Assembly: GCA_030668875.1 (NCBI GenBank)
Contig: DAOVER010000015.1
Location: 1-32,000, forward strand
Length of the DNA: 32,000 bases
Direction: 5' to 3'
Source: Candidatus Heimdallarchaeota archaeon
GTDB lineage: Archaea > Asgardarchaeota > Heimdallarchaeia > Heimdallarchaeales > Heimdallarchaeaceae
The notes beneath the pieces are model-generated. The model ran no database searches. It had not been told where the DNA came from and saw nothing but the letters and a program-made list of their open reading frames with translations. Numbering within the stretch: the first letter of the stretch is position 1; every line of letters starts with the position of its first letter. This document shows, one piece after another, positions 13,626-25,642 of this stretch. The position numbers and the translations under genes were made by a program.

Positions 13626-13643
13626 GTTTCGGTAAGCCAAAAT
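13626..13643. promoter_or_regulatory. Predicted DtxR-family operator GTTTCGGTAAGCCAAAAT in the sufCB promoter
   Basis: 14/18 identical to the operators at 25005 and 25026. Lies 17 nt downstream of TATA-like TTAATAAG (13601-13608). Confidence 0.7.
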
Positions 13644-13709
13644 TTGTGAAGTCCTTACACTAGGTTTCAAATTTGTATTTACTAAGAAAGAGTGACATTA
13701 GAAATAATA

Positions 13710-14486
13710 ATGGGTGAAATAATGCTAGATATTAGGAATCTTAATGTTTCAGTTGAAGGAAAGGAGATCTTGCGTAATGTGAATATCACTTTACGCGATG
13801 GAGAAGTTCATGCACTTTTTGGTCCAAATGGTAGTGGTAAGACTACATTAATTATGACAATTATTGGTTATCCTCAATTTGAAGTAACTAAAGGTGAGAT
13901 AATCTTTGAAGGAGAAAATTTGCTTGAACTAGAAATTGATGAAAGAGCTAGATTAGGAATTGGTGTAGCTCAACAGAGACCACCCACAATTAAAGGTGTA
14001 AAATTAAGAAATATAATTGATTTCTACTTAAGAAATAATCCTGAGAAGGTAGACTATATTTCTAAACAAATAGAAAAATTTGAAATGCAAGATTTCATAG
14101 ATAGAGAAGTTAACGCTAATCTGTCAGGTGGAGAGATAAAAAGATCAGAAATTTTCCAAATGGTTTTATCATCGCCTAAGTTCTTTATACTTGATGAACC
14201 AGATTCAGGAATCGATCCGGAGTTTTTAGGTAAAATCGGAGCGATGCTTACTGAAATATTACGATCAGAAAAGAAACAAGATCAAATAATTACTAGATCT
14301 TCGGGATTAATTATAACTCACACAGGAGACATATTGAATTATTTTAATGCGGATTTAGCACACTTAATGATGAATGGCACTATTGGTTGTACAGGAAATC
14401 CACAAGAGATGCTGGAACAAATACAACAACATGGTTATGAATATTGTATAAAATGCAATAGAAGGAAAAAAGGGGTTTGTGATTAA
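13710..14486 (+). CDS. sufC: Fe-S cluster assembly ATPase SufC (SmsC type)
   Basis: GPNGSGKT, LSGGEIKRSE, DEPDSG, LIITHTG, C-terminal GYEYCIKC. The start may be GTG 13692, ATG 13710 or ATG 13722. Confidence 0.92.
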   Translation: MGEIMLDIRNLNVSVEGKEILRNVNITLRDGEVHALFGPNGSGKTTLIMTIIGYPQFEVTKGEIIFEGENLLELEIDERARLGIGVAQQRPPTIKGVKLRNIIDFYLRNNPEKVDYISKQIEKFEMQDFIDREVNANLSGGEIKRSEIFQMVLSSPKFFILDEPDSGIDPEFLGKIGAMLTEILRSEKKQDQIITRSSGLIITHTGDILNYFNADLAHLMMNGTIGCTGNPQEMLEQIQQHGYEYCIKCNRRKKGVCD

Positions 14487-15734
14487 ATGTATAATAATAG
14501 ACATAAAAGAGGAATACAATCAAACAAAGAGCAATTTGACATTATAGATCTAGATGAAGAGGATGTTCATAAACTAAAAGAAAATCTTCCATCCGAGATT
14601 CGTTCATTAGATGAAATGAAAGCAAAAGATGTCCAAACCTTGGCAGAGGTAGGAATGTTGATGGATGAAAGTAATCGTTCAGGAACTTATTTGTGTTATG
14701 GACAGTATGGTTTTGTTACTGCACAATTCATTGAGGGACTTGAGTGCATCCCAATAGCAGAAGCATTAGAAAGATATCTTTGGTTGAAAGAAAAATATTG
14801 GTTCAAAGCAATAAGAAAAAATGAAGATAAAATTGTTGAAACCATTTCTAACTCAATTCCAAGAGGCTTTTTCATAAGAGTAAGAAAGGGTTACAAAATA
14901 AAAAAACCCTTCCAAGCTGCATTATATATGACAAGGAGTACTAGGGTACATGGTCTTCATAATATTATAATACTAGAAGAAGACTCAGAATTGACACTTC
15001 TTACCGGATGCACAAGAGCACATGATGCCAAGAAGGGTCTGCACCTAGCTATTTCAGAGATATATATCGGAAAAAATGCTAAACTTGTTAGTACAATGAT
15101 TCATAATTGGGGACCAAACTTTGATATTGAGCCTAGAACCTGTACCATTGTTGAAGAGGGTGGTATATTTATAAATACGTATTGTTCAACCAACCCTCCA
15201 AGAACAGTCCAGATGTATCCATTCACACATTTACAAGGAGATAATTCTTCAGCGAAGTATGCGTCTATAATTTTGGGAACACCTAATACCTATTGCGATA
15301 TTGGGGGAACAATTTTGATGGAAGGGACCAACAGTGGTGCAGAGATATGTGCTAGAGCTGTTTGCAAAGGAGGAAATATTGTTCAAACAGGTTTAATCAT
15401 AGGGAAAGGGGAAAATTGTCGCGCACATGTTGATTGTGCAGGACTTATGATGAGTAATGAAGGAATGATAGAGGCAACACCAGCGTTACGAGCACTCAAT
15501 CCTAATGCTAGAATGAGTCATGAGGCTTCTATTGGACGAATTGCTCCAGGAGAGTTGGTCTATTTGATGTCGAAGGGTTTCACAGAAGAAAAAGCATTAT
15601 CGACAATAATTAGAGGGTTCATAGATCCAGGAATTGAAGGCATATCCCCAGAATTAGATGCTGCTTTAACAGAAGTAGCAGAGATTTCAGGTCATGGTGA
15701 AGAATGGGATGTGATTCCGATTAGAAATAGATGA
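14487..15734 (+). CDS. sufB: SufB/SufD family Fe-S scaffold (SmsB type)
   Basis: Beta-helix-type sequence with HNIII, TGCT, MIHNWG, AHVDCAGL, HEASIGRIA, IIRGF. Immediately follows the sufC stop. Confidence 0.88.
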   Translation: MYNNRHKRGIQSNKEQFDIIDLDEEDVHKLKENLPSEIRSLDEMKAKDVQTLAEVGMLMDESNRSGTYLCYGQYGFVTAQFIEGLECIPIAEALERYLWLKEKYWFKAIRKNEDKIVETISNSIPRGFFIRVRKGYKIKKPFQAALYMTRSTRVHGLHNIIILEEDSELTLLTGCTRAHDAKKGLHLAISEIYIGKNAKLVSTMIHNWGPNFDIEPRTCTIVEEGGIFINTYCSTNPPRTVQMYPFTHLQGDNSSAKYASIILGTPNTYCDIGGTILMEGTNSGAEICARAVCKGGNIVQTGLIIGKGENCRAHVDCAGLMMSNEGMIEATPALRALNPNARMSHEASIGRIAPGELVYLMSKGFTEEKALSTIIRGFIDPGIEGISPELDAALTEVAEISGHGEEWDVIPIRNR

Positions 15735-15778
15735 AAATAACAAAGGTAAGGAGAATAAAAGAAAGGTTGTGATAAGAA

Positions 15779-16339
15779 ATGAATGTAACGATAATAGATT
15801 ATGTAATGTACATGTTGTTGAGAATGAGAGATATCGTTGGTTATCCCTTTAAACCTAAAAAAGAATTGAAAAAACTTAAAATCAGAAAAGATGACACTAT
15901 ACTTGATTTTGGATGTGGAGTAGGGTCTTTTACGATTCCATTAGCACAGATCATAACAAAGGGAACAATCTATGCTTTAGATAAACAGCGATATGCTACA
16001 GAAACTGTTGAAAGAAGAGCAATAAGGAAAGGAATTCAAAATATTGAAACAATAATATCTAATGGAGAAACAAGTCTAGAAAATGAAACTGTTGATGTTG
16101 TTATGCTTTTTGGAGTGTTACCAGAAATTAAAGACAAAGAGAGAGTTCTTAATGAGATGTATAGGATTTTAAAACCCAAAGGTTTTTTATCTACTCGATT
16201 TTGTTTCCACATCTCAAAAGAAGAAATAATTGAATTAATGGAAAAAACAGGCTTATTCACATTTATTGAACAGAAAGGAAAAATCCTCAATTATAGGAAG
16301 AAAGAGATCATAAAAGAAATAGACTTATCTGTTGGATAA
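15779..16339 (+). CDS. Class I SAM-dependent methyltransferase
   Basis: Motif I ILDFGCGVG, acidic residue in YALD, VDVV, LKPKG. Confidence 0.85.
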   Translation: MNVTIIDYVMYMLLRMRDIVGYPFKPKKELKKLKIRKDDTILDFGCGVGSFTIPLAQIITKGTIYALDKQRYATETVERRAIRKGIQNIETIISNGETSLENETVDVVMLFGVLPEIKDKERVLNEMYRILKPKGFLSTRFCFHISKEEIIELMEKTGLFTFIEQKGKILNYRKKEIIKEIDLSVG

Positions 16340-16390
16340 AGTGAATGAATAACATAATCAAGCTTTTTCTTTTAATTCATTTCATTAATA

Positions 16391-24751: not shown

Positions 24752-24981
24752 TCAACAATCACTTTGCTTGCTTCTTCCTTCCGAAGAGTCAAATTGTAAT
24801 TTCTAAATTTGTACTCAATTGGATCGCCAAGAGGTGCCTTTCCAATTACTCTGATCTCTGTATTTCTTGTTAAGCCCATTTCCATGAGTCTGCGTCTTAA
24901 ATCTCCTGATATGCTAATTTTTACCACCTTAGCTACTTCTCCAACTTCTAGTTGATCCAATGTTATTTCTTTGTTAGTCAA
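24745..24981 (-). CDS. feoA: FeoA family protein (first copy)
   Basis: RRLMEMGL..T.I......PLGDPIEY....Y.LTLRKEEA. TTG start with AAGTGAT SD-like sequence. Confidence 0.92.
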   Translation of the reverse strand: MTNKEITLDQLEVGEVAKVVKISISGDLRRRLMEMGLTRNTEIRVIGKAPLGDPIEYKFRNYNLTLRKEEASKVIVEC

Positions 24982-24999
24982 TTAATCACTTCAATTAGT

Positions 25000-25045
25000 A
25001 TTATATTTCGGTTGACCAAAATTATATTTCGGTTGACCAAAATTA
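25000..25045. repeat. Perfect 21-bp tandem repeat ATTATATTTCGGTTGACCAAA x2 (+ATTA), creating two operator-like quasi-palindromes at 25005-25022 and 25026-25043
   Basis: Read directly. ATTTCGGTTGACCAAAAT pairs with its own reverse complement at 7 of 9 arm positions. Confidence 0.9.
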
Positions 25046-25048
25046 CAC

Positions 25049-25058
25049 TTATATTTAA
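25049..25058 (-). promoter_or_regulatory. TATA box of the feo operon (TTAAATATAA on the minus strand)
   Basis: 5 nt upstream of the first operator copy; A-rich BRE-like ACAAAAT just upstream on the minus strand. Confidence 0.6.
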
Positions 25059-25195
25059 GATTTTGTCTTGTTTTGAGTTATAAACCAAAAGAATTTAAAA
25101 TGTGCAAGAATTTGTTGATTACTAAGTAAAAAAATAACAATCTAATAAATAAACGAGCAATTCAACATTTATATGTTTGATTCTGGTGAACTTAT

Positions 25196-25642
25196 ATGAA
25201 GACTGTTAGAATAGAAGAATACATCGAAACGATTTATACTATTTGTTTAGAAAAAGAAATAGCAAAAGTTAGTGATATAAAGAATATGTTGGGATTAAAC
25301 AGTCTTGCTACTGTTACTGAGATGGTTCAAAAACTGGATGATGAAAAGCTAGTCAAGTATGAGAAGTATAAAGGGGTTACTTTGACTAAGAAGGGATTTA
25401 AATTAGGCAAACAACTTATAGAAATACACAAAGATGTTGAAGATCTTTTTAACATACTAAATATTGACAATTCAATTGCATCAAGTGATGCTTGTTTAGT
25501 TGAACACATAATTTCTAAGGAAACAGCACAAGCGATAAAAGCATTTGTAGAATTTGCTCAGAAAGAGGAGAATATAGACATCTTGCAAAGGATAGAAGCT
25601 TACTATTCTAAATCAAGGAAAAGCAAAAAAGAAAAAAAATAA
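25196..25642 (+). CDS. DtxR/MntR/IdeR-family metal-dependent repressor (short form without C-terminal SH3/FeoA domain)
   Basis: IEEYIETIY, wHTH ..ATVTEMVQKL..YEKYKGVTLTKKG, metal-site H..VE and DACLVEH. Divergent from the feo operon. Confidence 0.92.
   Translation: MKTVRIEEYIETIYTICLEKEIAKVSDIKNMLGLNSLATVTEMVQKLDDEKLVKYEKYKGVTLTKKGFKLGKQLIEIHKDVEDLFNILNIDNSIASSDACLVEHIISKETAQAIKAFVEFAQKEENIDILQRIEAYYSKSRKSKKEKK

Follow-up and report, generated by a model that had tools for sequence, protein, structure and literature searches.

A candidate DtxR-type iron regulon with a shared operator in a small clade of Heimdallarchaeota

How far can an iron regulon be delimited from sequence when its regulator, its binding site and its targets appear to lie side by side, and which of the adjoining genes belong to it? 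The question is raised by the first 32,000 nucleotides (nt) of contig DAOVER010000015.1 of a Candidatus Heimdallarchaeota archaeon (assembly GCA_030668875.1), referred to below as the window, in which a gene of the DtxR family lies next to genes for ferrous iron uptake (Feo) and for iron-sulphur (Fe-S) cluster assembly (SufCB). To our knowledge, almost nothing is known about transcriptional regulation in the Asgard archaea, which are mostly uncultured. Our reading, which we hold to be probable on comparative grounds, is that this island is an accessory iron-acquisition regulon of a small Heimdallarchaeota clade, which would be repressed by its DtxR-family protein through a shared operator.

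A first-pass annotation of the window had described two convergent operons, and its gene content and order agree with the Pfam domains and the open reading frames (ORFs). Specifically, the convergent gap of 51 bp is present at 16340-16390, the junctions of the minus-strand genes overlap or measure at most 30 bp with the sole exception of 131 bp at 21436-21566, the DtxR-family gene (25196-25642, plus strand) is divergent from feoA, and both outer promoters carry the same motif, TTTCGGTNNNCCAAAAT, at 13627, 25006 and 25027. Contigs from four DNA runs on marine sediment, all belonging to one study, bridge every junction of the region, so that it is not an assembly chimera; two of these runs may be the source of this assembly itself.

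The genome studied (G000; 3.23 Mb assembly, 92% complete) was compared with 39 related species genomes (40 with G000, 24 of them forming the genus subset). The operator described below is borne by six Heimdallarchaeota genomes (G000, G009, G010, G011, L047 and L048), and a search with a 69-amino-acid (aa) ORF of the window later added L121 (an NCBI assembly), L122 (a JGI contig) and L123 (a fragment) as carriers of the variable part of the island; eight assemblies in total were seen in the comparison of core genes. Domains were called with Pfam, and equivalog-level calls were made with the curated cut-offs of NCBIfam. The genes, the operator and its statistics, conservation and co-distribution, the ligand residues and a structural variant can be read directly from these data.

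The operator and its candidate reader

The motif is a palindrome of the form TTTCGGT-NN-ACCGAAA. Within the window, 5 matches with up to 2 mismatches to TTTCGGTNNNCCAAAAT were found against 0.40 expected, a number reached by none of 100 shuffles, and a search of the whole 3.23 Mb genome at zero or one mismatch returned 4 exact matches and none further. A position weight matrix (PWM) trained solely on the operator sites of G009, G010 and G011, with the window sites left out, scores the latter at 23.0, 23.0 and 22.8 bits, at the top of the 3.2 Mb genome. In all six operator-bearing genomes the spacer between dtxR and feoA carries the palindrome just downstream of a TATA-like element, at positions fixed relative to the feoA start (-42/-43 and -63/-64), and always beside a 148-aa DtxR/MntR-like gene. 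Tandem copies stand at those positions in five genomes, including L047 and L048, which are outside the PWM training set, and also in L121. G009 has three copies before feoA, G011 has a single strong one, and each of the other four genomes has two; in G000 the copies are 21 bp apart, i.e. two helical turns. The sufC operator is identical in G009 and L122 and differs by one change in L121. On this evidence the operator is a real element shared by the feoA and sufC promoters, and the earlier claim of an identifiable operator is borne out by the ranking with the relatives' PWM, by genome-wide rarity and by the fixed positions.

Could the repeated motif nevertheless be a product of chance or duplication with no regulatory role? 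At feoA the two copies form an exact tandem duplication of 21 bp and should therefore count as one event, and G000 and G009 are close relatives whose promoter-proximal DNA at sufC is similar overall. Such an origin is hardly credible, however, given that the motif is rare genome-wide and an independent PWM ranks the window sites top, that its position is fixed as the copy number varies (1 to 3), that changes keep the palindrome across six to eight assemblies, and that the motif occurs separately at a promoter on another contig (C39, see below).

Other matches were rejected as operators. The fourth exact match (C37:22853) lies inside a 299-aa ORF, and its 17-mer also occurs in G016, a genome without the 148-aa dtxR, which counts against an operator role; the PWM matches at or below 20.4 bits (C22:58020, C36:52937, C30:3210, C68:70993 and C22:33196) are all intra-ORF. 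A second palindrome, TTTTGGGTTATAACCCAAAA, stands on the dtxR side of the operators, some 110 nt ahead of feoA, and is perfect in L047 and L048; its half-sites are operator-like, its spacing is wider and its centre is TATA-like, and it may represent either the promoter of dtxR or an additional binding site.

The 148-aa protein matches PF01325 (55.1 bits, cut-off 26) and PF02742 (44.8 bits, cut-off 27), and its closest solved relatives are the Bacillus subtilis MntR structures (E = 8e-21). Alignment to B. subtilis MntR gives the metal ligands E8, E11, H78, C100, E103 and H104, corresponding to MntR D8, E11, H77, E99, E102 and H103, with C100 equivalent to C102 of DtxR; all six are invariant in the six Heimdallarchaeota orthologues and in a Thorarchaeota homologue. 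Guedon and Helmann reportedly established in 2003 a metal-selectivity rule under which the iron-sensing DtxR/IdeR proteins have a Cys where MntR has Glu99. Close orthologues of this dtxR and of feoB occur in 3 of the 39 related genomes (G009, G010 and G011) and also in L047 and L048, and the 148-aa dtxR was found only where the locus occurs.

The genome holds three DtxR-family genes, and the description of the island as having one repressor fails on that count. Besides the 148-aa gene there is a 244-aa paralogue on contig C41, present in every genome of the genus (all operator carriers included) and without adjoining metal genes, and a 221-aa DtxR-like gene on C39, found only in G000 among the 40 genomes searched, which for that reason cannot be the operator reader in G009, G010 and G011. 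In 20 genomes of the genus without the 148-aa gene, matches to the operator pattern are near control level (31 versus 23). Since the operator persists in G009, G010 and G011, where the 148-aa gene alone lies near it, and since matches elsewhere are near control level, the 148-aa protein is the best candidate and probably the operator reader. The proposal of a DtxR-family repressor with its operator is thus supported by domains, ligands and co-distribution.

Several observations pull the other way. The top NCBIfam match of the regulator is MntR (PRK03902, 105.6 bits, below the cut-off of 138); the FeoC-like protein encoded in the feo operon is co-distributed with the operator too, so that the DtxR protein is not the only candidate by distribution; no operator can be recognised before the sufCB of G011 (best PWM score 7.2 bits); some 150 bp separate the operators from the start of dtxR, whose autoregulation is therefore not evident; and the 131-bp spacer within the minus-strand run is strongly conserved and carries a TATA-like element and no operator.

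These observations bear on two alternatives. The operator might be read by another protein: by the FeoC-like one, whose gene is in every operator-bearing genome, by the 244-aa paralogue, which every genus genome has, operator carriers included, or, in G000, by the 221-aa protein, whose gene stands 4 nt behind the best palindrome of the genome. We regard this as unlikely, as the 221-aa gene was not found in the operator-keeping G009, G010 and G011, and the 244-aa paralogue is disfavoured by the near-control count in genomes without the 148-aa gene as well as by a widespread feoB paralogue on C29, which is outside the 40 highest PWM matches (all at least 11.0 bits). The motif moreover has the shape of a DtxR-family box, and DNA binding by FeoC has never been shown (PMC7762939).

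Alternatively, the regulator would sense manganese and the locus would serve manganese homeostasis. Its nearest characterised relatives are indeed MntR proteins, by both of the scores given above, and it shares with MntR the short architecture without an SH3 domain. Manganese nonetheless seems an improbable answer: the score falls short of the MntR cut-off, position 100 is a Cys, as is reportedly typical of the iron sensors DtxR/IdeR, in place of MntR Glu99, and the targets are Feo and an Fe-S assembly system. An iron-responsive 148-aa repressor remains the preferred reading, and the targets are considered next.

The Feo and SufCB genes

The core found in all eight assemblies consists of dtxR, feoA-feoA-feoB and the genes for a 166-aa membrane protein and a 110-aa winged-helix protein. 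FeoB has its G-domain, helical domain, Gate repeats and FeoB_C, and FeoA SH3-like proteins are encoded upstream; outside the clade, its nearest counterparts share 43-46% identity with it and belong to archaea and Bacillota alike. The 166-aa protein can be placed indirectly, through its orthologues, in the MJ0565 family: seven homologues (67-91% identical) carry a precomputed PF27307 match, as does the L121 orthologue (93% identical). A member of this family is encoded 3′ of feoB in all of the Heimdallarchaeota loci and in the Thorarchaeota contigs L103 and L104, the Thorarchaeota member being 27% identical (tblastn).

In all eight assemblies the MJ0565-family gene is followed by that for the 110-aa protein, in which alignment shows an invariant Cx2Cx5C motif; the cysteine cluster of enterobacterial FeoC is Cx4Cx2Cx5C. 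An hmmscan search gave no match to Pfam FeoC (PF09012), where the HMMER filters drop most matches above about E 0.1, and a profile of the family matched no solved FeoC among PDB sequences. An AlphaFold (AF2) model from six sequences was poor (predicted local distance difference test, pLDDT, 56), and a Foldseek search with this poor model returned only insignificant, generic matches to winged helix-turn-helix folds. The language-model look-alikes of the protein are all FeoC clusters (best 0.91, 185 shared features), and FeoC is a plausible label. The protein evolves fast, with 51-56% identity between subclades (window versus L031, L047 and L048) as against 89-93% for FeoB and 72-75% for the MJ0565-family protein of the same operon, and the Cx2Cx5C motif stays unchanged.

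SufCB is a divergent member of its class, below the equivalog cut-offs: the best NCBIfam match of SufC is TIGR01978 (198 bits, cut-off 212.8), and those of SufB are SmsB NF052511 (169.5, cut-off 650) and then SufB TIGR01980 (149.7, cut-off 346.4). A SufC ATPase followed by a SUFBD-core scaffold is the arrangement of a minimal SUF/SMS system, and no SufD-, SufS- or SufE-type domains were found by Pfam in the adjacent genes. The pair is convergent to the feo operon in four lineages (G000, G009, G011 and L121/L122), and the sufC operator is kept in G000, G009 and L121/L122. SufBD was detected in 3 of the 24 genus genomes (G000, G009 and G011) and IscU in 19 of 24, and G000 itself carries IscS-IscU on contig C1; sufCB is therefore a second, accessory Fe-S system, and the minimal SufCB is not part of the core Fe-S machinery of this genus. 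In Escherichia coli, the suf operon is repressed by Fur and exists beside the housekeeping isc system. The term 'iron-sparing', used for the island in the first-pass annotation, is not apt either: sufCB makes better sense as an additional Fe-S system that starvation would induce on top of the baseline IscS-IscU.

The features of the region are collected in Table 1. For the MFS gene (major facilitator superfamily), the most likely start is ATG 21236; the product then has 421 aa, as it does in L121, and the gene overlaps the 69-aa ORF by 11 nt. Homologues in relatives align from about residue 29-43. The position of the island varies as well. In G000 and L121 it stands between a DENN-like gene and a pair of genes for an ATP-binding cassette (ABC) ATPase and a protein with 12 transmembrane (TM) segments, and in G010 (L099) the DENN-like gene sits between dtxR and that pair; the window neighbours concerned are at 12108-13505 and 25814-28354.

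Table 1. Annotated features of the island, in window coordinates (SAM, S-adenosylmethionine; RBS, ribosome-binding site)
Feature	Coordinates	Strand	Remarks
Putative sufC TATA-like element TTAAATTAATAAG	13596-13608	+	read from sequence; similar one in G009
sufC operator TTTCGGTAAGCCAAAAT, one copy	13627-13643	+	about 18 nt downstream of TATA-like element; PWM 22.8 bits
sufC, Fe-S assembly ABC ATPase	13692-14486	+	PF00005; possible in-frame start ATG 13710
sufB/SmsB-like scaffold	14487-15734	+	PF01458, 110.7 bits
Variable 5.8 kb block (methyltransferase, CydC-like, CydD-like, MFS, ORF69)	15755-21593		insertion/deletion variant
Small class-I SAM methyltransferase	15779-16339	+	Pfam methyltransferase domains
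CydC-like ABC half-transporter	16391-18136	-	NCBIfam best matches CydC
CydD-like ABC half-transporter	18124-19968	-	NCBIfam best match CydD
MFS transporter	19971-21236	-	PF07690, 193 bits; longest ORF reaches 21332
69-aa ORF (ORF69)	21226-21435	-	one predicted TM helix; no family match
Conserved 131-bp spacer	21436-21566	-	TATA-like GAAAATATAC; RBS GAGGT; operator-free
FeoC-like winged-helix protein, 110 aa	21567-21899	-	C69-x2-C72-x5-C78 invariant
MJ0565-family 4-TM membrane protein, 166 aa	21930-22430	-	PF27307 on orthologues
feoB, ferrous iron transporter	22431-24473	-	FeoB_N, Gate, FeoB_C and FeoB_Cyto domains
feoA, second copy	24470-24751	-	PF04023, 58.7 bits
feoA, first copy	24745-24981	-	TTG start; PF04023, 85.2 bits
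feoA operator, copy nearer gene	25006-25022	-	20-mer begins 42 nt before feoA start
feoA operator, copy adjoining TATA-like element	25027-25043	-	20-mer begins 63 nt before feoA start
Putative feoA TATA-like element CTTAAATATAAG (minus strand)	25048-25059	-	comparable element at same position in relatives
Second conserved palindrome, 20 bp, TTTTGGTTTATAACTCAAAA (minus strand)	25071-25090		five of six genomes
Predicted DtxR/MntR-family repressor, 148 aa	25196-25642	+	PF01325 and PF02742; no SH3 domain

The variable block at the operon tail

In G009, sufB and the FeoC-like gene converge with 37 bp between the ORFs, and three of the four sediment runs (X2-X4) hold a variant without 5839 bp, in which 21594 follows 15754 and the junction sequence is exactly that of the G009 empty site. 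A G009-type junction in a co-occurring variant means that the methyltransferase, the ABC pair, MFS and ORF69 together form an insertion/deletion variant. G009, G010, G011, L047 and L048 lack this block; that it might be unique to G000 was rejected, for L121, L122 and L123 carry the same block in the same place. No convincing terminal repeats were found at the ends of the 5.8 kb block. Its proteins are 96-98% identical between G000 and L121 and the flanking island genes 85-93%, and the sequences hint at a recent exchange of the block between lineages.

In L121/L122 and L123 the block is preceded by a 303-aa flavodoxin-like plus 2x[4Fe-4S] gene (Fld/Fdx), and in these assemblies ORF69 overlaps its neighbours by 4 and 11 nt. 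The 131-bp spacer of G000 aligns over its full length, at about 90% identity, with the L121 spacer before the Fld/Fdx gene, and is also conserved in L123 and G010, even though G000 and G010 share only 55% identity in the FeoC-like protein encoded upstream. Its counterparts (L121:5756-5900 and L031:2986-3126) are about as conserved as the neighbouring coding DNA, which suggests an internal promoter or an element of the 5′ untranslated region. Rfam gave no match at E up to 1 over 13000-26000, and the fold of the spacer does not stand out from those of shuffled sequences (z = 0.21). In G000 the Fld/Fdx ORF seems to have been lost between two AAAAAATGA repeats, with the result that ORF69 would now use the Fld/Fdx ribosome-binding site and start. 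In G010 and G011 the Fld/Fdx gene stands alone at the operon tail. Judged by these gene orders, the tail is a cargo slot with four states: empty, Fld/Fdx, cassette (the MFS and CydD/CydC-like genes), or both.

Whether the present cargo answers to the operator is a close matter. ORF69, MFS and the CydD/CydC-like genes may form a transcription unit of their own, served by a promoter in the spacer and outside the control of the DtxR operator in G000; the regulon would then comprise feoAAB-MJ0565-FeoC-like, sufCB (perhaps with the methyltransferase) and an operon on C39. We put the chances of this slightly below even. It would account for a spacer that is conserved in G000, L121, L123 and G010 despite the divergence of the FeoC-like protein, that has a TATA-like GAAAATATA about 75 nt before the start codon and that was originally the 5′ region of the Fld/Fdx cargo gene; there is, furthermore, no operator-like site within 360 nt before MFS (best PWM score 1.4 bits), and three other Asgard contigs have a separate promoter for the cassette. 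Against this, the distal genes lie on the same strand directly behind the feo operon, no strong oligo-T terminator was seen after the FeoC-like gene, and the DtxR-type box that the cassette has elsewhere is absent here, which would fit a takeover of control by the upstream promoter. Co-regulation of the cassette in G000 by read-through from the feo promoter is thus about an even call. The '12 target genes' of the first-pass annotation are in any case too many, the block being a variant that is missing from relatives and that stands behind an operator-free spacer with a possible promoter of its own.

That annotation had also given iron-related roles to four uncharacterised genes, a suggestion that holds for the 4-TM protein (as the feoB-attached MJ0565 family) and for the MFS transporter (through boxes found across lineages, which argue likewise for the CydD/CydC-like pair) and lapses for the methyltransferase, which has no comparative link to iron, and for the 69-aa ORF, which shows no sign of purifying selection. 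More specifically, the methyltransferase belongs to a multi-copy family and has no close orthologue in the 40 relatives (best 39%); L121 has a copy 96% identical to it, and elsewhere the cassette is found without it. The 69-aa ORF matched no family in the Pfam and NCBIfam scans; it has two homologues of equal length (81-86% identity), with the central 22 residues invariant across the three assemblies, and the ratios of synonymous to non-synonymous changes in its codons are 2:13 and 3:10. The ORF is probably a genuine small gene encoding a membrane protein.

The ABC pair is CydDC-like, with scores below the equivalog cut-offs throughout. The CydC-like protein scores 335 bits with NF008364 (cut-off 630) and 318.2 bits with TIGR02868 (cut-off 329.05), and the top match of the CydD-like protein is TIGR02857 (391.7 bits, cut-off 435). 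Among solved chains, the N-terminal membrane segment of the CydC-like protein is best matched by CydC (3e-11, versus 8e-4 for Sav1866), and the membrane domain of the CydD-like protein by CydD (6e-22, versus 1.5e-12 for MsbA). In E. coli CydDC, H85 of CydC and H312 of CydD are the axial haem ligands, and R81 and R136 of CydC bind propionate (PMC10374445). Both ligands are kept in the alignment, as H101 and H298, respectively, and these His residues are invariant in 4/4 CydC-like and 38/38 CydD-like homologues, whereas CydC R81 and R136 (here Q and H) and CydD Y311 (here F) are not conserved. Neither cytochrome bd subunit I (PF01654) nor HemB and HemC were detected in the 92% complete genome. 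Without a detectable cytochrome bd the pair cannot be serving cytochrome bd assembly; without detectable HemB and HemC, the organism may lack tetrapyrrole synthesis. The pair may have a role in haem or chelate traffic.

The closest relatives of the cassette are in other Asgard archaea (51-58% identity), and the bacterial acquisition that the first-pass annotation had considered for several components is not supported for it. In Thorarchaeota (L103), two feo operons and a DtxR gene flank an MFS-ABC-ABC triad, with the box GTTAGACGCGTCTAAC at the MFS promoter, and two further Asgard contigs, L105 and L120, have classical DtxR-type boxes before MFS (ATTAGGCATGCCTAAT and TTAGGCAGTCCTAA), making three contigs with such boxes at this cassette. 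A tentative idea, which we think rather doubtful, is that in Asgard archaea the cassette transports haem or iron chelates under DtxR control, and that in G000 it has been captured by the end of the iron-repressed feo operon; if this were true, a function of the CydDC family in scavenging iron or haem, unconnected with the assembly of an oxidase, would follow. A Spirochaetales contig (L080) has feoA-feoA-feoB followed directly by an ABC pair 37-38% identical to that of the window, possibly an independent linkage of Feo and ABC exporters in bacteria.

Related loci and the proposed mechanism

The island is not self-contained, as the first-pass annotation had it, because an equally strong fourth operator stands before a second operon. 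The site, AGTTTCGGGTAACCGAAACT at C39:30337 (22.8 bits with the relatives' PWM), abuts a TATA-like ATTATAAA on its upstream side and is followed after 4 nt by the gene for the 221-aa DtxR-like protein, which consists of a dimerisation domain and a FeoA/SH3 domain; a FeoB paralogue is encoded next. This operon (C39:27691-30356; L038:3665-6357) was found only in G000 among the 40 genomes searched, and is homologous (37% and 47% identity) to a Thorarchaeota operon that continues into sufC-sufB. The linkage of DtxR, Feo and SufCB with a shared operator of its own is also seen in Thorarchaeota, where the palindrome GTTAGACGCGTCTAAC, adjoining a TATA-like ATTTATAGA, occurs at three promoters against 0.03 matches expected. 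Its positions in L103 are 6077, 6673 and 12956, and the promoters are those of the DtxR-like/FeoB/SufCB operon, the MFS-ABC-ABC operon and a feoA/split-feoB/MJ0565 operon. By its gene content and boxes, the Thorarchaeota locus is a parallel regulon with a different box.

The metal, the mode of repression and the structure of the transcripts are what we infer in the following scheme. Most likely, the 148-aa protein, loaded with Fe(II) and as a dimer, would bind TTTCGGT-NN-ACCGAAA, of which two copies lie between the TATA-like box and the feoA start and one about 18 nt downstream of the TATA-like box of sufC. By analogy with archaeal repressors at such positions, the bound protein would block the recruitment of RNA polymerase and, when iron is scarce, would leave the DNA. 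Derepression would then (i) provide Feo uptake, with two FeoA, FeoB, the MJ0565-family partner and the cysteine-bearing, FeoC-like winged-helix protein, and (ii) switch on a minimal SufCB Fe-S machine supplementing the baseline IscS-IscU. In G000 the fourth operator would bring the DtxR-like/FeoB operon of C39 into the same regulon. The feo operon would end in a cargo slot, occupied in G000 by ORF69, MFS and the CydD/CydC-like genes, with the methyltransferase on the opposite strand.

Such a scheme has several known counterparts. Leyn and Rodionov reportedly published in 2015 (J Bacteriol 197:451, cited in PMC10783522) a comparative reconstruction of archaeal DtxR-family iron regulons. As a second Fe-S system that would be under an iron-sensing repressor beside IscS-IscU, the sufCB operon resembles suf under Fur in E. 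coli; the differences are that the repressor here is of the DtxR family and not Fur, that SufCB has two genes (SMS-like) and that it is accessory within the genus. For the regulator, B. subtilis MntR (PDB 1ON1) offers the same two-domain architecture of about 145 aa without SH3, with five of the six ligand positions equivalent, but the protein here has Cys100 for Glu99, Glu8 for Asp8 and a one-residue insertion before the recognition helix, is below the NCBIfam MntR cut-off and has iron genes as its targets.

The TroR box of Haloferax volcanii, TTTAGGC-NNN-CCTAAA, occurs in tandem, and one copy suffices for repression (PMC10783522). The likeness to TroR extends to a DtxR-family repressor, the semi-palindromic form of the box, tandem boxes, iron-uptake targets and several paralogues per genome (PMC10783522). 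Here, however, the half-site has C/G where that of TroR has A/T, the predicted targets are Feo and SufCB where TroR has siderophore genes, and the host is an Asgard archaeon in which regulator and targets travel together as an accessory island.

Enterobacterial FeoC (Klebsiella, E. coli; PMC7762939) is likewise a small winged-helix protein encoded after feoB and bearing a cysteine cluster, to which the Cx2Cx5C motif corresponds here; the FeoC-like protein differs in length (110 aa versus about 78), in matching neither the Pfam nor any solved FeoC, and in having its gene parted from feoB by that of the MJ0565 family. With E. coli CydDC (PDB 7ZD5, PMC10374445) the ABC pair shares the heterodimeric type-IV exporter fold, the order D then C, both axial haem ligands, and membrane domains best matched by CydD and CydC. 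It differs in being below the cut-offs, in not keeping R81 and R136, in occurring where no cytochrome bd, HemB or HemC was detected, in that the Asgard pair is always preceded by an MFS gene, and in the DtxR-type boxes of the Asgard contigs.

From these comparisons, the locus is a further case of a known class, the DtxR-family iron regulons, with a lineage-specific operator and a modular architecture, and current views of DtxR-type iron control are not overturned. Its value lies in a regulator, an operator and a small set of targets that are readable from sequence with unusually good comparative support, and in an operator motif that can be used to scan other Asgard genomes. It ties the uncharacterised MJ0565 membrane family to FeoB and the MFS/CydDC-like cassette to metal regulation. 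Finally, it offers a view of how an accessory regulon is assembled, in which a regulator, an uptake system and a second Fe-S machine travel together and a slot at the operon tail takes alternative cargo.

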